Positions 3,015 to 46,438 of a stretch of DNA of 55,141 nt are shown here, in pieces. The notes below the pieces were generated by a model, which ran no database searches, was not told the origin of the DNA, and saw nothing but the letters and a program-made list of their open reading frames with translations. The stretch covers positions 1-55,141 of the IMG/VR virus record IMGVR_UViG_3300010413_000041; one strand, written 5' to 3'. Made by a program: the position numbers and the translations under genes. Position 1 is the first letter of the stretch. Each line of letters begins with the position of its first letter. This DNA is from a virus. Its lineage: Duplodnaviria > Caudoviricetes.

Positions 3015-4318
3015 GTCAATTCCTCCAAAATATCTAAATCCATCAATTCATTATCAATAACGTTCAACAGTTCTTCTTCGAAGGTGGGTGGTTGGTCATT
3101 CTCAGCCTCCGTCCCGACCTCTTCATGCTCCCCTGTTTCTGTCTCTTCTTCGCTACCATCGGTTTCGGAGAGATCCCCCACTTCTTCCACCTCTTCCACC
3201 TCAATAGCACCGATATCAATATTAGCAATATTCTCAGGAATAGTCAAGCATAATTCTGCCAATCGCTCATCCATCTCTGAAATAAACTTATACTTCTCTT
3301 CCTCTTCGATCCCCTTGACCAACTCCTTAACAGATGTCTGGATATATCCGACCAACCCAGAATACAGCCGATCAGCAAAGCGATCCTTGACCTCTTCCCC
3401 CCCATCTTCCCCCTTCTCGAAAGGACTTGTCAAGGTATCATCGTCAAACTCCCTCCTCATCCGAGCATAATAGGAGTTTACCTTCCCCTTGATTGCCTCC
3501 TTATCGCCCGGGGGAATATCCGCAGCATCCACCCCCCTTCCGCCCGCTACAGCGAAGATCCCTCGTGGGATTGCATATAACGTTCCATCAATCACATCCG
3601 CAAAAGGCAATTTATAGGCACCAAAATTATCAACATTATCAGGGTCATAATAGAAAAAACCGGAGCGATACTTCGAGTTCGGCACATCTTCCGCACCCGC
3701 CCAATCTCTCATCCTGCGGACTGCCGATGTGGCATCCCATGGGCGATCTCTTGGCGCAAGAGGTAATGAAGTTGATCCCGATACCGCCTTGGCAGACAAC
3801 GTCATTGTCGCAGGGTTCATTCCCCAGATAACAGGACCATACTCCCATAATCGGAGCGTTCTGAGGTGGCGAATATCTTGGATAGTCTTCCCATCTTCCT
3901 CACTCCTCTCATAATCAAAATCAAGAGCATCATAACCAATCGACCATTCATCTACCGCCCCTGCCTTGATCCTCTTGAATGCTCCCAGACCTTCAGGAGT
4001 ATCTAACAGGAATTGGGTTTTAGCCCACAAAGCCCCATCTGCATCCGGATACTTATCCAAGATCTCCGCAGGGAGTTCACCTCGGGATATCTCCCTCATC
4101 TGCACAGGTTTACCAACAACCCTCAACACACTATCGTAATTGTGGTTATCAAGCACTCTAATCTTCCCACCCCTCTCGCTGATTGTCTTGGTGAACGCTC
4201 CGCTGTGGATGACATCCCCACCCATATCAACGTTGCCCATAACCGCAATAATATGCTCAACTATTCCAGTCTCATTATCAGCCTTCAAATATATCGAAGG
4301 CACTGTTTTCTTCTCCAT
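3011..4318 (-). CDS. HK97-type prohead protease with extra central domain and acidic tail
   Basis: D.GGDVI..GAF, LDNH, WSIGY, L.EYGPV.WGMN motifs; ATGA-coupled to MCP. Confidence 0.9.
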   Translation of the reverse strand: MEKKTVPSIYLKADNETGIVEHIIAVMGNVDMGGDVIHSGAFTKTISERGGKIRVLDNHNYDSVLRVVGKPVQMREISRGELPAEILDKYPDADGALWAKTQFLLDTPEGLGAFKRIKAGAVDEWSIGYDALDFDYERSEEDGKTIQDIRHLRTLRLWEYGPVIWGMNPATMTLSAKAVSGSTSLPLAPRDRPWDATSAVRRMRDWAGAEDVPNSKYRSGFFYYDPDNVDNFGAYKLPFADVIDGTLYAIPRGIFAVAGGRGVDAADIPPGDKEAIKGKVNSYYARMRREFDDDTLTSPFEKGEDGGEEVKDRFADRLYSGLVGYIQTSVKELVKGIEEEEKYKFISEMDERLAELCLTIPENIANIDIGAIEVEEVEEVGDLSETDGSEEETETGEHEEVGTEAENDQPPTFEEELLNVIDNELMDLDILEELT

Positions 4319-4980: not shown

Positions 4981-5196
4981 TTAATCTTCTGACAATGGTT
5001 GTATCTCTTCTTCATAATAGCCTACCCTCTCACCATTCTCATATAAAGCGACATCTCCGGTTATCTTCCCCAACTCTATATTTAACATAAAATCAACATC
5101 ACTCCGGGAGATCCCCAACTGACGCTGGCATACCAAGTAAACCCGCTCCATATCACCATCCAATGCATCTACTATCTCTTTAATCATTCTGTCCAT
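4981..5196 (-). CDS. Small acidic protein overlapping MuF stop (possible partner/immunity)
   Basis: Overlaps 3' end of the MuF gene. Confidence 0.5.
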   Translation of the reverse strand: MDRMIKEIVDALDGDMERVYLVCQRQLGISRSDVDFMLNIELGKITGDVALYENGERVGYYEEEIQPLSED

Positions 5197-6770
5197 CCTA
5201 ACTTCGCAAATAGATTATCTATTGCATCCATTATCTTAGCAAAGTCCTCATCTGACCAATATACCGAGTTCCCATAAATCTTATCCGATCTCACCAATGC
5301 AAGCTCCCCCAATAACACAGCATCATTGCTCTTCATGGCAACCCATTGACTGTAAGCCCTAGCCCACAGTTCATGCGATTGCAGACAGTATTGAGCATAC
5401 TCTGGAGAAGGATATACCGTCTTGGTCAAACCACCAATCTCCATTGATGTCTCAAACCTATGTGGTACTCTATATTGAAGGAATAATGTCTTATAAGCCT
5501 CCGTCTCCCTGATAGTTTCCATAACTTCCTTCATGTCCAGATAGTCATATATCCTTGACGCAAACATATCTTCATATCTCATAAACTCCCCCTTCCCGAT
5601 CCCAGAGAGATCCAAGAAGTGACCAGTTTCGTGCGCCGAAGTCAAGCCGGGGTGGTCAGATCCCTTGGAGAGCTTTATATTCAACGGTCTAAGTCTCTGC
5701 TCCCCCTTCACTTCAAAAAAGTCACACCCTAACTCCCCATGCCATCCAACATCCTTAGGAACACTATAGGCAGGAATTTGCGGTAGTTCTATCTCCCCTG
5801 TTCCATGTAACTCATCAATAATATCCAACGTCCTCTGGTAATTCTCCTGCATAAATCTGCTATCTTCAACCGATATCGCCTCACTAACCCTCTTCCCTCC
5901 CGGCTGTGGTGCTCTGACAATATCTATGGGATCGGGAGCTCTAAAGGGTTCGGGTTCGGGCTCAACTTCCTCCCCACCAACAACCTCCTTCGGGAAGAAA
6001 GGCGCAGTCGTACATCTGCAATTGCAAAAGTTCTTTGGAGATCCCGCAGGGTCATGCGGATACATCAACTCTTCCCCCATCACTATAAATGGCTGATCTA
6101 TCGGAATAGGACCAATGCTCCCCCCTTCCTTGTACTCAGATCCTGCCGTCATGTGTTCCGGTCTTGCCCGATCATCATATGTCGCCAACCACTCCTTCCA
6201 CCCCACTCCCCACATCTTATGGATCTCATGAGATCCAGCATTAGCCGCCCTCAATGTCTCGGTTCTGGCTATATTCTCAGTCCTGTGTCTGGGTAATCTC
6301 TCTTCATACCATGCCCACTCATCTGGATCTAACGTCTCTCCCTGATATGCCCTAAACATTGATGTCAAATAATTCTGAGTTTCGGATAACGTCTTACCAC
6401 TCCTCTTCACACCCGCCAATAACCTTCTTATATCATTGTTCGTGGTATCACATATCGGCTGAGCAAATCTCAGGGTGTACTTATTAAACCAATCCCTTGC
6501 TTGCAGGTTCTGGACATCAAACCTAAACCCAAACTCTGCCAGATCCTTAGCCATCTCCTCCCCCCTGCGGATGACCAACTTTGTGATCATTGGCTGAAAC
6601 TCCCTGCGCCATTGTTCCCATGCCTCCCTGTCAAAATACTGTTGAGCCATCGACCGGATGTAATCATAATCAGGACTAGCCTTCTCCCTGAGCGACTTAT
6701 CTTTAGCCTTCTTCAATATAGCCAACATTGCCCGAAGATCATTGTCAAATGCCCTATCCGCAGCCTTCAC
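5184..6770 (-). CDS. MuF/SPP1 gp7-like minor head protein with C-terminal HExxH (zincin-like) extension; probably expressed as a portal fusion
   Basis: IARTET..A.N, KEW....D.R.R..H, PHDP...NCRC; AHETGH and ELWARAY; frame open to ~6930 without another start codon. Confidence 0.85.
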   Translation of the reverse strand: MKAADRAFDNDLRAMLAILKKAKDKSLREKASPDYDYIRSMAQQYFDREAWEQWRREFQPMITKLVIRRGEEMAKDLAEFGFRFDVQNLQARDWFNKYTLRFAQPICDTTNNDIRRLLAGVKRSGKTLSETQNYLTSMFRAYQGETLDPDEWAWYEERLPRHRTENIARTETLRAANAGSHEIHKMWGVGWKEWLATYDDRARPEHMTAGSEYKEGGSIGPIPIDQPFIVMGEELMYPHDPAGSPKNFCNCRCTTAPFFPKEVVGGEEVEPEPEPFRAPDPIDIVRAPQPGGKRVSEAISVEDSRFMQENYQRTLDIIDELHGTGEIELPQIPAYSVPKDVGWHGELGCDFFEVKGEQRLRPLNIKLSKGSDHPGLTSAHETGHFLDLSGIGKGEFMRYEDMFASRIYDYLDMKEVMETIRETEAYKTLFLQYRVPHRFETSMEIGGLTKTVYPSPEYAQYCLQSHELWARAYSQWVAMKSNDAVLLGELALVRSDKIYGNSVYWSDEDFAKIMDAIDNLFAKLGWTE

Positions 6771-6819
6771 GAAATCATCAACAAACTCATTGGCTATATC
6801 ATCGTTCTTCTTAGCATAT

Positions 6820-6881
6820 GCCCGTTTTTGCTCAGGGGTTAGGCGCCCCTCTAGTCTTTTTTTCGATCTTCCCCACCCTCC
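6820..6881 (-). other. Predicted -1 programmed ribosomal frameshift signal (portal to MuF)
   Basis: GGAGG (6881-6877), A-AAA-AAA (6863-6857), 6-nt spacer, stem AGGGG/CCCCU with loop GCCU able to pair with downstream GGGC. Confidence 0.65.
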
Positions 6882-8416
6882 AAGATCCCATCTATCAACC
6901 CAGATGTACCCGATATCCCTTCTTGGGATATATCAGGATAACTCCAATTCCCGTACTCATCTCCTTTACCTTCCTGCCACCACCCCTTCCCCAGATCTTC
7001 GCTCTCTTCCTCTGCCTCAGGCTCAGGAACACCCTCATCCGCTCCCCCTGCCTCATCCGTACTCTCCTCCATATCTCCTTCTTCCACCTCGCCATCCTCA
7101 GTTCCATCACCCGCCTTCCCCATCGGCACTAGTGTTGAGATCATGTAGATAGTATCCCCATCCGGAAGATCCCCGATATCTAAATTCAATAAACTCGCAG
7201 CTCTGTGCTTTGGCACTCCATAGGATACCAACTGGGTAAAAGCAACAACCATCTCTGGTTTGTTTACCTGTAACGCTGGCACATCTGAGAAGTCGAACGC
7301 AACCCACTCCTTCCCATCTCGATCCTGCAAATAATACTTGTAATCATCCTCAAATAATAAGATCTCCGGTATCTGGACATCCTCCCAGAATGCTCGCCTT
7401 GCATGCTCCCAATTCTCATACGTTGATCTCTTCAACCCGATCCTTGTTCCTATCAATATCGGAGGAACGCCCAAAGGACCTAGTATGCGGCTCTCGTTGC
7501 GCTCATCCTGCGTCTCAAACCCCATCTCATCAAACCCCATCCCAATCCTCTCATAACTTCCACCCCGATCTAATACCCCGACCTCATCCCAATTCTCATA
7601 GCCTCCATAAGTCTCAGCCCACCTTCTCTTAATCTCATCCACAACCTCATCCTTCATAGCCGTTTCAAACCGTAAGATCCCCGGCACTATTGCTCCCCTC
7701 TCAAAAAACAATTTTATAAAATTGGTCACCATATTATCCACATCCGCAGACCTCGACATAGGAGCGACCGGAGATAACCCATAACCAAACCCATCCAACT
7801 CATCCCCGGGGTTCGGTAACTTCACATGGCTTACATCCTGCGCCAACATCGGGATACCATCCCTCGCCTGTTTACCCTCGGGAACATATAAATATCCCCG
7901 GATATCCCTTGACGCGTCCCTTCCCGGCACTATAAAAGTCCTGTCGGGTCTGAGTGCGTACATGGCTACCGGAAGACCACCCCCCCTCGGTCTCTGATAA
8001 TACGTGTATGCGTTCCCGTCCAGATTGAAGTATACGGTCTGCAATATCTGAAATTCACGCCAACTCGTAGAAGGGTTCGGGCGAGCTACCAACTGTGATA
8101 GTGGTCTATCCGGAGATAATGGCTCAGGATTATCCACATCCCCAGAATAAGCCCTCAACTTGACCAACCCTGCCGATCTTGCCTTATACATGATCGCAGA
8201 ATATATCAGGGAGTTTGCATCAAACCCCTCTTCAACATAACTGTCATAATTGACAATATGCCATTGTGGCGTACCCTCCCTGTAATCAGGATACAACATT
8301 GGGAATTGCTTACCCTCGATCCCAGATCCCCAATATTGCGACCTAACCGGAGATCTCCCAGACCGGAAGTAATCAATCGCCATCTTCAATCTCGTCATAA
8401 ATGTAGGTTTTCTCAT
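6851..8416 (-). CDS. Portal protein, HK97 family
   Basis: RPN, L.GNAY, LRPDR, G.GLSP, F..GA.PG, LGVPP.LIG; acidic C-terminal tail. Confidence 0.93.
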   Translation of the reverse strand: MRKPTFMTRLKMAIDYFRSGRSPVRSQYWGSGIEGKQFPMLYPDYREGTPQWHIVNYDSYVEEGFDANSLIYSAIMYKARSAGLVKLRAYSGDVDNPEPLSPDRPLSQLVARPNPSTSWREFQILQTVYFNLDGNAYTYYQRPRGGGLPVAMYALRPDRTFIVPGRDASRDIRGYLYVPEGKQARDGIPMLAQDVSHVKLPNPGDELDGFGYGLSPVAPMSRSADVDNMVTNFIKLFFERGAIVPGILRFETAMKDEVVDEIKRRWAETYGGYENWDEVGVLDRGGSYERIGMGFDEMGFETQDERNESRILGPLGVPPILIGTRIGLKRSTYENWEHARRAFWEDVQIPEILLFEDDYKYYLQDRDGKEWVAFDFSDVPALQVNKPEMVVAFTQLVSYGVPKHRAASLLNLDIGDLPDGDTIYMISTLVPMGKAGDGTEDGEVEEGDMEESTDEAGGADEGVPEPEAEEESEDLGKGWWQEGKGDEYGNWSYPDISQEGISGTSGLIDGILEGGEDRKKD

Positions 8417-9798
8417 CTAAAATACACTCCTGCAACCCTCGAATTATAAGCCAAAGCACCCGCAGCGATACTATCTGGGAGGTGTCCAGACCCATAAATA
8501 TCATCCACACTCGCCAATCTATGCTCATTCTCCATAAATTCAATATAGGGGCTCTCGATCTCCCCCCTCTCGATCCCCGCTATGTACTGAGATAACAGGT
8601 CGGATCTCCTTCTTCCCACCATCACTACGGGTTCAATGCCGGGGGATTGCAAATAACCATCCACGACATCCCCCAAACCCGTTCCATCATGTGATCCCGA
8701 TCCCCCATATCTCGCCACCCTCTTATCCAACTCTCCCACCATGACATCCCAAGGCATCCTCCCCATTCTCTTGAACGCCACCAACCTTATCGGATTTACA
8801 TCCACTCGAAAAGTGATAATAACTGTCCAGTCCTGCTTGCGAGCCCAATCCGCACCATGAGCATAATCCGCACCTTCCTCCGGTTCCTCGATCTCAATAT
8901 ACTCATTATTAGCCCCAACAAACTCCCCCAACCCTCTTCGGAACATCTTGCCAACCGCCCGACCATCGATCGCCCTGCTCTCTGGGGAGGGGTCTTGCAA
9001 TTCATACTCATTCAACCACATAGCCTTGGTTACTTCTGTTCTCTTCCTAGCAACCTCTTCCTTATCCAACCATCCTACCGGATCTGCCGAGGTTTCACGA
9101 TAACACCATTGGTATACCCCCCACCCCAATCCCTTGGCTCTCTTCAACACCTCAGTCATTGTTCCCGCAGCGTATTGGTGCGTTGATGACATAACCGTCT
9201 GGGAGCGGATATCCCCCTTCCCCATCGTCTGCCCCTGCGCCGCCTCCAAGATCCTTAAATCCATCTCGTCTATCTCATCCATTCTCAATCTCTGAGGGTG
9301 CGGACCTCTCACAGATGACATGGATGCCATCAAAGCCCGGATATTACAACCCCAACCTAATCTCGTCTCCCTCTTTATCGGGTCAGACGCCAATAAAAAC
9401 CTCGGAGCGTTGTCATAATTCCAAAATTCCTGCATGTAGGAGTGAACCCTCTCAGATTGCAAACCTGAGCCACCAAGTATGTTTACATCTGCCTTCAGTG
9501 TAACAGCTTCGGTTAAACCTAATAAAGCCAACAGATAACTCTTCCCCCCAAACCCTCGGGATGCCTTCCACACCGATACCGGATCTATCGCAAAATAAGC
9601 ATCCGAGAATGCACGCCACGGTGATACATGCCCCTCGCACACCTGTATATCCGGTATCCTGACACCCCAAGAGAGCCAGACAAACTCCCGGAGATCCTCT
9701 TCACTCTTAATCGGGAGCGAAAATCGATGCATCCTCGGTTCTGACAGAACACCAACATTAACTGCCGTGTTCGATAATGCTGATAAACCCAGACCCAT
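8413..9798 (-). CDS. terL: Terminase large subunit
   Basis: Walker A-like SRGFGGKS, RG, Walker B RMDEID, nuclease GADWA..D.TV, D.TGLGD, HLPD. Confidence 0.9.
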   Translation of the reverse strand: MGLGLSALSNTAVNVGVLSEPRMHRFSLPIKSEEDLREFVWLSWGVRIPDIQVCEGHVSPWRAFSDAYFAIDPVSVWKASRGFGGKSYLLALLGLTEAVTLKADVNILGGSGLQSERVHSYMQEFWNYDNAPRFLLASDPIKRETRLGWGCNIRALMASMSSVRGPHPQRLRMDEIDEMDLRILEAAQGQTMGKGDIRSQTVMSSTHQYAAGTMTEVLKRAKGLGWGVYQWCYRETSADPVGWLDKEEVARKRTEVTKAMWLNEYELQDPSPESRAIDGRAVGKMFRRGLGEFVGANNEYIEIEEPEEGADYAHGADWARKQDWTVIITFRVDVNPIRLVAFKRMGRMPWDVMVGELDKRVARYGGSGSHDGTGLGDVVDGYLQSPGIEPVVMVGRRRSDLLSQYIAGIERGEIESPYIEFMENEHRLASVDDIYGSGHLPDSIAAGALAYNSRVAGVYFR

Positions 9799-42828: not shown

Positions 42829-45800
42829 TCATCCTCTTCTCAACATCTCGACCATTCTTATATCATGCATAAGCGATCTCTCATCCTGATATCTCGAATA
42901 ATTGGCACTAAAATAATAATTGTTGTTCGTGCCTCCGGAAGATCCAATAGCCGATAAAGCCAAATCCATATCTCCTCCAACTGCTCCCAGAGATTTAAAC
43001 CACCCGATCCCAACCCCTTCTCCCAACGCCATTCCCCACCTGACACCAACCCCAGACGGAGAGCCGATCTCCAATTTTGCCTCAGCCTTAGCCAATAATT
43101 CGGTCAAAGCGAGATCAGTCATCCTTAGCATATCATCAACACTAGCCCCCAGACCCAAGGTTATCCCTTGGAACAACACCCTCGCATCAATCCCAGCATC
43201 CTTTACCGCCTTAATAAGATCCATCTGTTGTTTCAGGAAATCCAACTGCGCCATCTTTTGCTGGATATCATAAATCCGCATATAACTTTCTAATGTCAGT
43301 TGGCTAGCCTCTGCTGTATCATTCTCCAACTTGGCTCTCAATTGCTCATACTTCAATATATCCCCCTCGATCCCTTTAGCCTCAGCCCAAGATCCAAAAA
43401 ATTCCATCCAACCCAACTCAGTTCTCAACTTCTCTAAGATCCCCCCAACCCCGAGCTTGCCCGCCGCTTTGTCTCCGATCTTCAATATGCCTTGAGCATA
43501 TCTGACCATTGCAGCATCCAACCCCTCCACACCGATATTGCCAGCGATTGTCTTGGCAAATGATCCAAACTTGCTAGCAAGGTCAACAACGCCTTCAAAA
43601 TCGGTCTTCCAATCATCAAATATTCGAAGTATCGGATCCATGTCATTGACTTGATCCATAATATTCTGTAACCCATTGACAACCATCTCGGATGCACTAG
43701 CGACATCCAACAAGGCTTGCTCAAAAGGCGAAGGGGAGTGTTGCTGTAAGATCCCCAACTTCGAGGATGCGATTGCCTTGATCTTCTCCAACACCTTCCC
43801 TAGCCACGTCCAAACCTTCTGAGCAATATCACGCAGGGTTCTGAATTGAGTTACGATCGCAGACAACGCCCCATCCGTGACAGTCTGCACAACAGGACCG
43901 AAAGTATCCGAGATAAACTCAGCAATATCTTCGATAATTGGCAAGAGATCATCTTTTATCACTCCCCAGATTGTTTCCAGTACTGGTTGTAACTTCTCCC
44001 ACGCCAACTTCCCCACCTCAATAGCAATCTGCATACCGATCCCAATAATCTCAGCAATATCTTCCAACACCGGGAATAACTCATCTTGCATAAACCCCCA
44101 TACCGCCTCAAGAGCGGGTTTTAATGTGTTCTCCCAAAAGGAAGATGCCGTGTTGATAGCTGCGGGTATATTCAACTCCAACCAATCCCAGACCTGTTGG
44201 AAGATCGGAAAGATCTTGGTTGAGATAAAATCCCAGACCGTCTGTAACGCTGGTTTTAGTGTGTTCTCCCAATATCCGGAAACAGTAGTTATCGCCGCCG
44301 GGATGTTCACTTCCAACCAATCCCAGACCGCTTGCAATATCGGTACAACCTTCTCCGAGATAAACTGCCAGACCTCCGTCAAGGCAGGCACCAAAGTTCC
44401 GGTGAAGAAATTAGCCGCCCACTCTATCGCCGGGGGAATTTGCTCCAACAACCATTGGATTATCTTCCCCAACACCGGGAGGACATTCTCCGATATAAAC
44501 CCTGCAACTGTTTGAAGTGCGGGTTGGAGGACATTCAACCATAAATCACTCGCCCCTTGAAGGACAATTGGTAAAACATCCCTGAAAGTTGATATGATGC
44601 TGTCTATGGCGGGTTTTATATTCTCATTCCAAATGGTGGCAACAACATCCCTAATCCCACCCCAATTGTTCTGCCAAGCCAGGACTAAAGCTGCCACTAT
44701 CCCGATAATCGCACCTATCGCCAACACCAAAGGACCGGATATCACCCCTACAATCGATCCTATAATCGGCAGTATCGTTCCCAGAGCAGATACCAGAGAT
44801 CCAACCACCAACAAAACAGGACCAATCGCCGCAGCTATCCCCGCAAATATAACTATGATCTTCTGAGTTTCAGGACTTAATGCTGTAAACTTCTCTACCA
44901 GAGAAGATATAAAATTGACAACCTGTTGCACGACTGGCAACAATACCGATCCAAGATTTGCTGCCATATCTCCAAACTGCGCCTTCAAGATCCTCGTACT
45001 ATTGGCTAAACCATCTGATGTTCTAGAGAAATCCCCCTGAGCATTGGTTGTCTGCTCCATTATCAGAGCATAAGCCGCTTGGGTTTTTTGTGCCGGGGTA
45101 AGAGCATCGACCGTACCCGCCAAAGCCTCTTCCACCTTGGTTTGAGCCGCAGCCAGATCAGCATTAGCCAATATTGCCTCCTCACTCGAAGGACCATACC
45201 GGGCAACTACATTGTTGTACTCTTCCTGCGCTTGTGAGGCTTTGACCTGTAATGCCGCCAACTCTGCCGTGTTCACCTCGACATCCACCAACCCCAACTC
45301 CATAGCCTTGGCGGCGATTGTTGCTTGGTTCAGGTTCACCCCGAGGGCTCGCAACGGTTCAACTTCCCCGACCAACCCCGCTCTCAACTTATCCAACACC
45401 TCATCCGGTGACATATTATTAAATGACGCCAGATCCGCAGCTAACCCCAACAACCCCACAGACATATCGGCGGCAACATCAGGACCAATCTCCATTGCTG
45501 TAAACAGGTTGCCATAAGTTCCCGCCGCCTCTAATGCGGATTGTTCTGTCATTCCCAGACTTTTGGCAGATGTCTTCGCATAATCAGTGATAACACTTGC
45601 CGAGTCATCAAAAACAACCATGACCTTGTTATAACTCTCCTCAAGGTCACTCGCCGCATTGATCGCAACTGCACCGAGAGCAACAACGGGAGCTGTCACT
45701 CCTGCCGTCATGGCAACTCCCGCCTTCTGCAATCCCTTCCCTAAACTTTTGAGCTTTTTGCCGACCGCATCCAACCCTTTGGATGTCTTGTCAGCAAATG

Positions 45801-45831
45801 TCATCTCTACGGATAAGGTGTAATCTGCCAT
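42829..45831 (-). CDS. Tape measure protein
   Basis: ~1000 aa helical; ADLASF.N, W/F-periodic repeats, SPS motifs. Confidence 0.93.
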   Translation of the reverse strand: MADYTLSVEMTFADKTSKGLDAVGKKLKSLGKGLQKAGVAMTAGVTAPVVALGAVAINAASDLEESYNKVMVVFDDSASVITDYAKTSAKSLGMTEQSALEAAGTYGNLFTAMEIGPDVAADMSVGLLGLAADLASFNNMSPDEVLDKLRAGLVGEVEPLRALGVNLNQATIAAKAMELGLVDVEVNTAELAALQVKASQAQEEYNNVVARYGPSSEEAILANADLAAAQTKVEEALAGTVDALTPAQKTQAAYALIMEQTTNAQGDFSRTSDGLANSTRILKAQFGDMAANLGSVLLPVVQQVVNFISSLVEKFTALSPETQKIIVIFAGIAAAIGPVLLVVGSLVSALGTILPIIGSIVGVISGPLVLAIGAIIGIVAALVLAWQNNWGGIRDVVATIWNENIKPAIDSIISTFRDVLPIVLQGASDLWLNVLQPALQTVAGFISENVLPVLGKIIQWLLEQIPPAIEWAANFFTGTLVPALTEVWQFISEKVVPILQAVWDWLEVNIPAAITTVSGYWENTLKPALQTVWDFISTKIFPIFQQVWDWLELNIPAAINTASSFWENTLKPALEAVWGFMQDELFPVLEDIAEIIGIGMQIAIEVGKLAWEKLQPVLETIWGVIKDDLLPIIEDIAEFISDTFGPVVQTVTDGALSAIVTQFRTLRDIAQKVWTWLGKVLEKIKAIASSKLGILQQHSPSPFEQALLDVASASEMVVNGLQNIMDQVNDMDPILRIFDDWKTDFEGVVDLASKFGSFAKTIAGNIGVEGLDAAMVRYAQGILKIGDKAAGKLGVGGILEKLRTELGWMEFFGSWAEAKGIEGDILKYEQLRAKLENDTAEASQLTLESYMRIYDIQQKMAQLDFLKQQMDLIKAVKDAGIDARVLFQGITLGLGASVDDMLRMTDLALTELLAKAEAKLEIGSPSGVGVRWGMALGEGVGIGWFKSLGAVGGDMDLALSAIGSSGGTNNNYYFSANYSRYQDERSLMHDIRMVEMLRRG

Positions 45832-45832
45832 A

Positions 45833-46042
45833 TCACTTCTTCCTAGCCTTCTTGCTGGCAAACTTCATTTTGTGATCATGTACCTTATTCTCAATCGATA
45901 TCACCTGTAAATGATCCAATATCTGCTCCCACGGAATATCAGCCAGCTCATTCGGTGTGCAATGGTATATATCCCTGCACAATACCAGTTCTAAATATTC
46001 AATTGGAGGAGCCCCGGAATGAGTGTGTAAATACTTTACCAA
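45833..46042 (-). CDS. Tail assembly chaperone, frameshift extension (gpT-like)
   Basis: In the -1 frame relative to 46051-46398; YHCTP.EL. Confidence 0.7.
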   Translation of the reverse strand: MVKYLHTHSGAPPIEYLELVLCRDIYHCTPNELADIPWEQILDHLQVISIENKVHDHKMKFASKKARKK

Positions 46043-46050
46043 CCTCTCAT

Positions 46051-46398
46051 TCAGGCTTGCTCTTTTTTTTCCTCTTCCTTTGAAACTCTGGTAATGTTTA
46101 TCAAACCCAGAAGGTAATCAAGCTCCTCGATTGGCAAACCCTTTAACACTCCTTCCCCCTCCGAGGGGATAGGCAAGGGTTCGTCATCGTCATCAACCCA
46201 ATTCCATTCCAATATCAATCTCTGTAACAGCTCAAAACCCTGTTCTGCCGTGAAGTTCTGAGATAATGTCACACCATCTTCAGCGAAGAGATCTTGTGCA
46301 TGAGCATAGGTCATCGCACTTATAACTACAAATGATCCCTCTCCCTGAATATCATCTGTCTTGATCCTTCTTCGGGATTTATACCTTCGACTTGGCAT
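46051..46398 (-). CDS. Tail assembly chaperone (gpG-like)
   Basis: I.EWN..DDD.EPLP; between tail tube and TMP; GAA AAA AAA G slippery site at 46071-46062. Confidence 0.8.
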   Translation of the reverse strand: MPSRRYKSRRRIKTDDIQGEGSFVVISAMTYAHAQDLFAEDGVTLSQNFTAEQGFELLQRLILEWNWVDDDDEPLPIPSEGEGVLKGLPIEELDYLLGLINITRVSKEEEKKEQA

Positions 46399-46438
46399 AT
46401 CTTGTCCTCTCTATTCTGTTGATCCCCATCAATCCGGT

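Follow-up and report, generated by a model that had tools for sequence, protein, structure and literature searches.

The window analysed here, a 55,141-bp viral contig of IMG/VR (IMGVR_UViG_3300010413_000041) that comes from a metagenomic assembly and belongs to an uncultivated tailed phage, carries on its minus strand a gene for an HK97-type portal protein and, overlapping its end in the −1 reading frame, an open reading frame (ORF) for a MuF protein with a C-terminal LPD1-like domain. A programmed slip at a run of seven adenines (A7) near the 3' end of the portal gene probably makes a portal-MuF fusion. A −1 slip on this run, with a portal of 521 amino acids (aa) and a fusion of 1077 aa as the two products, had been proposed by a first-pass annotation of the same DNA; this core claim is supported by the coding conservation of the MuF frame from the run onwards, by in-frame portal-MuF fusions in other phages, by the recurrence of the run in relatives and by a conservation peak directly behind it.

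In the mechanism that we propose, the portal and MuF-LPD1 genes would form one recoded unit. Most ribosomes would finish the portal (521 aa) at the TAG at 6851–6853, and a fraction would slip by −1 on A_AAA_AAA (6857–6863) and continue into a 1077-aa portal-MuF-LPD1 chain; some of the portal subunits would then carry MuF as a C-terminal extension, and MuF would have no other form. The slip would most likely be ribosomal, helped by a GGGG/CCCC hairpin 6 nucleotides (nt) downstream and perhaps by a GGAGG 13 nt upstream. From this we infer portal rings with a sub-stoichiometric number of MuF/LPD1-bearing subunits, their cargo lying inside the capsid. The features concerned are the following.

6851–8416, minus strand: portal gene, HK97-type, 521 aa (PF04860 at 1.1e-37; phrog_12, phrog_2662)
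5184–6770, minus strand: MuF-LPD1 ORF past its first possible start, GTG 6768–6770 (PF04233, phrog_2468, phrog_4529)
6771–6857, minus strand: 29 start-less codons of the −1 frame, RLEGRLTPEQKRAYAKKNDDIANEFVDDF, a conserved MuF N-terminal motif in alignments
6857–6863, minus strand: slippery A7 run, candidate −1 slip site, CG[A AAA AAA] GAC in the portal frame
6877–6881, minus strand: Shine-Dalgarno (SD)-like GGAGG, possible upstream stimulator, 13 nt 5' of the A7 run
6834–6850, minus strand: hairpin AGGGG-CGCCUAA-CCCCU, candidate downstream stimulator, 6 nt 3' of the run
6820–6823, minus strand: GGGC, candidate pseudoknot partner of the loop GCCU (6841–6844), unsupported

Layout of the candidate slip site

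On the minus strand the junction reads GGAGG GTGGGGAAGATCG A AAA AAA GAC TAG AGGGG CGCCTAA CCCCT GAGCAAAAACGGGC. The 3' end of the portal gene, GAA GAT CGA AAA AAA GAC TAG, is as it had been described, and gives the A7 run the phase of an X_XXY_YYZ heptamer in the portal frame; the zero-frame product ends in ...EDRKKD* at the stop TAG (6851–6853). The other reported parts of the site, namely the upstream GGAGG at 13 nt, the heptamer, the 6-nt spacer (GACTAG) between the run and the stem, and the AGGGG/CCCCU stem itself, were all found in the sequence. The stem arms occupy 6846–6850 (AGGGG) and 6834–6838 (CCCCU) and enclose a loop of 7 nt.

MuF is read in the −1 frame with respect to the portal, and this frame is open from 6932 to 5184. 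The two halves of the predicted product do not share a single ORF, as the portal lies in frame 0 and MuF in frame −1 with the stop between them (6851–6853). A slip after the second Lys would yield 520 + 557 = 1077 aa, with a predicted trans-frame junction ...EDRKK/RLEGRLTPEQK....

The MuF frame is conserved from the run onwards and lacks a start codon

The first ATG, GTG or TTG in the MuF frame is the GTG at 6770, exactly 29 codons past the A7 run, and ORF and frame reading confirmed that these 29 codons are open. The sequence 5' of this GTG offers only ...AATGAGTTTGTTGATGATTTC, without a purine-rich SD. The first-pass annotation had set this missing SD against strong SDs of the neighbouring genes; the absence at the GTG stood, and the contrast held for two of three neighbours, namely for the portal, whose ATG has a GGAG 10 nt upstream, and for the terminase (AGGGAGAG), and not for the gene after MuF, which has a weak AGG.

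The stretch RLEGRLTPEQKRAYAKKNDDIANEFVDDF aligned with the conserved N-termini of MuF homologues (e.g. RGLTPEAKASMWTKADRLATSWEGKF in P0012), and the match to phrog_2468 starts from residue 17 of the extended MuF protein, 13 codons ahead of the GTG. Seven sequences, those of the window and the six relatives nearest to it, were compared in all three frames behind the run: over the 29 codons the −1 frame was free of stops in 7/7 and had a mean pairwise aa identity of 0.67, and the other two frames contained stops and reached 0.49 and 0.51. The codons before the GTG are conserved MuF coding sequence; since they are conserved and start-less, translation must enter the MuF frame at or before the A7 run. 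MuF appears to have no initiation site of its own, and so would exist in this phage only as a portal extension. Gene callers annotate a 528-aa MuF from the GTG (P0003), dropping the 29 conserved codons.

Fused portal-MuF genes among homologues

In-frame fusion is the commonest architecture among the homologues listed. PF04860 and PF04233 occur together in about 83 of the 120 MuF homologues listed (our count), and the portal and MuF ORFs of the window match positions 8–463 and 490–707 of the 717-position fusion profile phrog_2662, with which they are colinear. Two long homologues, P0125 (1033 aa) and P0126 (1028 aa), align over 93% of the MuF-LPD1 query and have the portal domain PF04860 as well. 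In-frame relatives share the order of the junction seen in the window: an acidic linker, a K/R patch and then G.TPEQKAA.WKA.DR.A..WEP.F. The profile, the homologue listing and the two long proteins thus bear out the earlier statement that such fusions exist in other phages. In tblastn searches, the MuF match in Geobacillus GBK2 and in Bacillus phage Silence fell in a gene annotated as ‘portal protein’, and the accessible part of PMC7302621 describes portal-MuF fusion genes in the Microbacterium phage clusters EA3/EA5/EA8 and EB. Fusion genes of the phrog_2662 type resemble the window in domain order and linker layout; the window differs from them in that its ORFs lie in two frames, for which a slip is needed, and in the C-terminal LPD1-like domain.

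Adenine runs recur at the portal/MuF boundary of relatives

Relatives were found by two alignment-based scans of IMG/VR, whereas single-sequence scans of viral contigs with MuF or the portal gave no matches. The scans yielded 95 loci with a portal at least 38% identical to that of the window: 51 were fused, 26 had MuF split off in the −1 frame and 2 in the +1 frame, and 16 were without MuF in the fetched stretch. After deduplication 76 loci were left (41 fused, 19 split −1, 2 split +1 and 14 without MuF); L141 was then restored by hand, which gave 20 non-redundant split −1 IMG/VR junctions. A run was present at the boundary in 16 of these 20 (13 A9 and 3 A7), always in the −1 configuration, and scans of metagenomes and GTDB-genome contigs added four further A7 junctions, L163 (on the contig of a metagenome-assembled genome, MAG), L170 (same as L177), L171 and L172.

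Runs of at least seven A numbered 24 in the 13,866 junction bases and 16 in the remaining 414,776 bases of these loci (Poisson P = 3e-31). Once the relatives are considered, the A-run at the portal/MuF boundary is far beyond chance. A conserved slippery site in related phages, for which we looked, was therefore found, in the form of A7 or A9 at the boundary of most split junctions.

Between the run and the conserved motif there was no ATG, GTG or TTG in any of the 16 IMG/VR A-run junctions, and in 13 of them the first start codon comes 78 nt or more after the position that aligns with the first residue behind the run in the window. According to the first-pass annotation, an SD and ATG belonging to MuF itself in relatives would have spoken against recoding. 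None of the 16 A-run junctions had such a start; the run-less L113 did. Among the four run-less split −1 junctions, three have a possible start ahead of the motif (SD and ATG in L113, ATG in L106, GTG in L123; frames read by eye), and the fourth, L157, has an in-phase C_CCT_TTT heptamer (by eye).

The split A7 junctions are eight in number (the window, L082, L083, L094, L163, L170, L171 and L172) and come from at least four assemblies. All eight runs begin at codon position 3 (xxA AAA AAA, A_AAA_AAA). This phase matters only for ribosomal slippage; it is the sole phase that allows tandem re-pairing of the tRNAs. The A7 split state persists even though the portals of these relatives are only 55–62% identical to that of the window.

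Some further observations concern the boundary in other relatives. All 13 split A9 junctions have a T immediately 5' of the run, as do 17 of the 20 A9/A10 junctions taken together (among them L006, L008, L013, L097, L109, L126, L131, L132, L136, L141, L142, L151, L155 and others). In eight of the 13 split A9 junctions the preceding T makes a −1-frame TAA at the 5' edge of the run, by which the frame switch is therefore pinned to the run. The heptamer of L157 (~3760–3780) is also present at the boundary of the fused L086, and CCC_TTT_C occurs at the boundary of L114 (~3890–3915) and L124 (~3875–3900), where MuF is at +1 and no start is nearby. These CCCTTT-based motifs may be alternative slip sites, or just conserved Pro-Phe. 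The portals of L106 (~3940–4036) and L123 (~3820–3970) end in a zinc-ribbon-like CxxC...CxxC extension, and MuF follows with a possible start of its own.

Fused and split states are interleaved

An in-frame junction run was present in nine of the 41 fused loci (five A9, three A10 and one A7). In L010, a fused locus with a run, both alternative frames hit a stop within 20 codons of the run, and a slip there would therefore give a portal-only product. The fused locus L098 reads CGA AAA AAA G in frame at L098:3763, as the window does, and a perfect 6-bp hairpin, GGCCCC-UCA-GGGGCC, follows at a distance of 6 nt; a slip by −1 would end 12 codons on, giving a portal-only product in a dnaX-like arrangement.

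On a quick portal tree (61 rows, LG+G4, SH-aLRT support only) the fused and split states were interleaved; presence of the A-run needs 15 changes, and the starred branches force at least eight changes for the split-A9 state. Two pairs of near-identical loci are in opposite states. L131 (A9, split; L131:3547) and L133 (A10, fused; L133:3833) are 98.6% identical over 1400 nt, and their difference in run length is either natural length variation or an error in one assembly. L140 (L140:3773) and L141 (L141:3772) share 99.97% identity; a single additional C in L140, some 70 nt 5' of its A9 run, turns this locus into an apparent fusion by way of an arginine-rich linker that looks out of frame.

Structure downstream of the run

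When the 45 nt 3' of the run were ranked by folding in each locus's own background, all nine A7 sites (the eight split ones and the fused L098) fell into the lower tail with fractions of 0.04–0.22, whereas the A9/A10 sites (n = 20) were scattered between 0.04 and 0.90 (Mann-Whitney P = 0.0007; P = 0.0017 with six representatives). A hairpin of the form (C/U)GGGG-8 nt-CCCCG is located 5 nt past the run in L082, L083, L163, L170, L171 and L172; in the window the distance is 6 nt and the loop 7 nt. The RNAalifold consensus of seven clade members is a hairpin 5 nt after the run, but the ungapped alignment puts the stem of the window one column out of register, and the pair counts in the window's row are not its real pairs. 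In the same seven sequences the mean pairwise nt identity peaked between +2 and +62 behind the run with 0.80–0.82, the next highest value in the 1.5-kb alignment being 0.74; an unalignable portal linker directly precedes this peak.

The H-type pseudoknot that the first-pass annotation had added to this hairpin gained no support beyond the pairing being possible. In the window the loop GCCU and the downstream GGGC would form three Watson-Crick pairs and one G-U pair, and GCCU:RGGC pairing is possible in 7/7 sequences, but the change between U-G and U-A is one-sided and there was no covariation. The pseudoknot stem bases sit in conserved codons of the seven-sequence alignment, and RNAfold favoured competing hairpins over the pseudoknot in L082/L083 and L170–L172.

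Read on the plus strand, 6834–6863 is a hairpin followed by T7 (AGGGGTTAGGCGCCCCT then CTAGTCTTTT) and resembles an intrinsic terminator that would lie antisense within coding sequence. A plus-strand terminator (6834–6850 plus the T-run) was rejected as a candidate, since the flanking conservation tracks the MuF reading frame.

Level of slippage and alternative explanations

Several results weigh against a programmed slip in the window. According to the accessible part of PMC5009743, A_AAA_AAA is much less shift-prone than A_AAA_AAG in E. coli. On its own the stem does not exceed chance: of 200 shuffles of the 67-nt stretch, which has a minimum free energy of −12.3 kcal/mol (z = −0.27), 71 folded equally well or better. 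The hairpin of the window is weak (5 bp, −9.8 kcal/mol, locus-background fraction 0.17). The four core stem pairs do not vary within the clade (GC in 7/7) and are fixed by Gly and Thr-Pro codons that are themselves conserved. Variation is confined to the closing pair, which is A-U in the window, C-G in four of the other sequences, U-G in L172 and mismatched (C-A) in L083; the covariation term of RNAalifold, +0.29, means that covariation gives the hairpin no support. The GGAGG, which the first-pass annotation had counted as part of the frameshift layout, is not conserved in the window's clade: a motif scan of five A7 junctions gave an SD-like motif upstream of three (window, L094 and L098) but not of L082 and L083, and inspection of the alignment by eye showed none in L163 and L170–L172. 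Plain run-less fusions make up 31 of the 61 relatives in the tree, and two products are therefore not obligatory in the family. Finally, changes at the DNA level also seem to toggle the boundary, as the pairs L131/L133 and L140/L141 differ in state.

For the window we moderately favour ribosomal over transcriptional slippage. Slippage by RNA polymerase, which would add an untemplated A and thereby produce A8 mRNAs that encode the fusion with no ribosome shift, is rather unlikely here, even though much in the wider family points towards it: most recoded relatives have A9 (13 split), the length at which, according to the part of PMC1088944 available to us, bacterial transcriptional slippage turns efficient and is selected against, and also the length of the run in Thermus dnaX; their sites have no consistent downstream structure, and an SD-like motif is absent in 13/13 split A9 junctions; in-frame A9/A10 fusions are interleaved with split A9 loci, as expected if either genotype yields mixed mRNAs. 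The A9 relatives indeed look more like transcriptional slippage. The run of the window, however, is only A7 and stays below the approximately nine A/T of transcriptional slippage sites (threshold from the same part of PMC1088944), which the 13 split A9 relatives reach. In addition, the phase needed for tandem tRNA re-pairing is held in 8/8 split A7 junctions, and the hairpin 3' of the run is kept in them; this hairpin counts against polymerase slippage, because a structure that is not yet transcribed cannot act on a polymerase at the run. As judged from these sequences, the portal/MuF family looks like a second example, after dnaX, of homologues that use either level of slippage.

The remaining explanations do without recoding. 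That the true sequence is A8 and the genes are a plain in-frame portal-MuF-LPD1 fusion disguised by an assembly or sequencing error is extremely improbable. Although the assembly is metagenomic, fusions are commonest and the near-identical L131 and L133 differ in homopolymer length, an A7 is short for a consensus homopolymer error, and seven related contigs from several assemblies (L082, L083, L094, L163, L170, L171 and L172) share the A7, its phase and the −1 split. The run-bearing split boundaries are 13 A9 and 3 A7, and A10 was found in only three fused loci; 13 split A9 against 3 fused A10, together with the uniform A7 clade, argues against a general sequencing artefact, and the boundary pattern leaves room for genuine genotype toggling. 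The opposite-state pairs L131/L133 (A9/A10) and L140/L141 (a 1-nt indel 70 nt upstream) would fit phase variation at a hypermutable run, or a recent inactivating frameshift and thus a defective allele. For the window we consider this very unlikely, given that the A7, its phase, the hairpin and the −1 coding sequence are kept across relatives with portals 55–62% identical, a conservation that a defective allele would not show; moreover, A7 tracts mutate far slower than A9–A10 tracts. There is likewise very little probability that MuF is translated independently, by initiation or re-initiation at GTG 6770 or at a non-canonical codon, with the A-run as incidental Lys-Lys. The 528-aa protein of the gene callers (P0003) starts at this GTG, and in P0004 and P0005, the two closest homologues that stand alone, the called starts are at similar positions or further on, but both proteins lie on short contigs and these starts may be the same artefact. 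The GTG would drop 29 conserved codons and has no SD, and the A-run relatives offer no start codon from run to motif in 16/16 cases, the first one following at least 78 nt on in 13/16.

Relation to known systems

The closest parallel to the proposed slip in the window is dnaX, which uses a ribosomal heptamer in E. coli and transcriptional slippage on A9 in Thermus (accessible part of PMC1088944). To make tau and gamma, E. coli ribosomes shift by −1 on an A_AAA_AAG that has an SD and a hairpin, and Thermus thermophilus slips on A9 during transcription; in both an A-run within coding sequence gives two products, as would be the case here. In the same manner, the homologues here appear to differ by clade, the A7 clade using a short heptamer together with stimulators and other clades a bare A9. 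In contrast, the dnaX slip truncates, whereas the slip predicted here lengthens the product by fusing a second protein to it; the E. coli heptamer is A_AAA_AAG and not A_AAA_AAA, and the families are unrelated.

The −1 frameshift of the tail assembly chaperone G/GT of tailed phages, reportedly described by Xu, Hendrix and Duda in 2004, likewise concerns a phage morphogenesis gene in which a −1 slip gives a minor, C-terminally extended product. It differs in gene pair and role, a tail chaperone there and a portal with packaged cargo here. In Shigella mxiE, slippage of transcription on a U-run joins two overlapping ORFs (accessible part of PMC1088944). As in the window, slippage is needed for the longer, fused product of two overlapping ORFs; unlike in the window, the gene encodes a cellular regulator, the slip is at the level of RNA polymerase and the run is longer.

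With regard to the proteins, gp7 of SPP1, a member of the MuF family, is bound non-covalently to the gp6 portal at low copy number, and MuF-toxins are said to have been treated by Jamet et al. in 2017 as ‘polymorphic’ cargo proteins. Both are similar to the window in that a MuF protein goes with the portal and C-terminal domains vary; unlike in SPP1 gp6/gp7, the association would here be covalent and set by recoding.

No description of portal-MuF recoding turned up in full-text searches of the open literature. The occurrences of ‘portal’ in the accessible parts of the PRFect paper, a 2025 frameshifting preprint, the GeneTack survey and a 2016 recoding review likewise include no such case, and their supplementary tables could hold one. 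Mechanistically the site belongs to a known kind; for this gene pair it is apparently undescribed.

Possible significance

The copy number and portal anchoring of MuF-type minor head and cargo proteins are poorly understood. If the proposed slip takes place, MuF as an occasional extension of the portal would be a simple, genetically encoded answer for this clade. Tentatively, and with somewhat more doubt than belief, we suggest for a large clade of uncultivated HK97-type phages that the number of MuF-cargo proteins per portal ring is set by programmed slippage via interchangeable routes; these might be ribosomal −1 slippage on an in-phase A7 with a hairpin, transcriptional slippage on T-A9, possibly CCCUUU-type heptamers, and full fusion. 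In-frame and out-of-frame A9/A10 genotypes would then be nearly equivalent, because either yields mixed products, and the clade would provide a structural-gene counterpart of the dnaX story; slippage would also be a means of giving each capsid a fixed dose of an LPD1/HExxH effector for injection.

The forms of the boundary (separate genes, A7 with hairpin, A9 and full fusion) are a natural series for studying the gain and loss of recoding sites. In practical terms, an A-run at a portal/MuF junction is not to be dismissed as assembly error or pseudogene, and gene callers truncate such MuF genes.

A second in-phase run at the tail chaperone position

The window has a second site of the same type.

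46063–46070, minus strand: second slip site, A8, GA[A AAA AAA] GAG, near the end of ORF 46051–46410

The 3' end of ORF 46051–46410 is GAA AAA AAA GAG CAA GCC TGA, and a −1 ORF at 45833–46117 overlaps it. The tape-measure gene (42829–45864, 1011 aa; phrog_58 at 1.3e-39) is located just downstream of the A8 site, and the two small ORFs at the site had no PHROG family match. The run that the first-pass annotation had compared with the portal site does contain the same in-phase heptamer. Judged by its surroundings, the A8 site sits at the canonical position of a tail-chaperone frameshift, and the phage appears to reuse this heptamer.

Gene context and domains

The contig is classed as linear, and CheckV estimated its completeness at 71%. 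In blastn the window had no match among cultured phages, and in tblastn the closest relatives among cultured phages were at or below ~28% identity. The scan of GTDB-genome contigs found relatives on MAG contigs only and in no isolate genomes, and the binning may be partly spurious; the contigs L162–L169, which carry related loci, were binned in MAGs of Planctomycetaceae, Phycisphaerae, Dehalococcoidia, Thermoflexales and Paceibacterota/Parcubacteria. Upstream of the portal lies the terminase.

8413–9798, minus strand: large-terminase-like ORF, named by position, with no Pfam match

The portal ATG overlaps the terminase stop (ATGA), and PF04860 scored 130.4 bits in the portal against a gathering cut-off of 39.1 in Pfam.

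The MuF-LPD1 protein consists of the MuF domain, a PE-rich linker and the C-terminal LPD1-like domain with HETGH. PF04233 scored 37.7 bits in this ORF (gathering cut-off 29.6), and the ORF was matched by phrog_2468 at 1.2e-38 and by phrog_4529 (‘minor head protein and DNA pilot’) at 3.3e-10. Residues 330–557 of the extended MuF protein are LPD1-like: the score for LPD1 (PF18796) was 20.5 bits, under the Pfam cut-off of 27, and in an Atlas search the LPD1 set accounted for 25 of 30 hits (score 0.96), while a PDB sequence search with the C-terminal domain gave no match at E ≤ 1. In the homologue alignment the HE.GH motif is kept in P0004, P0005, P0007 and P0025. Going by the HExxH motif and the sub-cut-off LPD1 match, the LPD1-like domain may hypothetically be labelled a ‘peptidase’. 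The C-terminal Pfam domains of other MuF homologues vary and include ADP-ribosyltransferase (PF03496), 2'-5' RNA ligase (PF13563/PF02834) and NUDIX (PF00293), a variety that is consistent with a putative variable module of packaged cargo.

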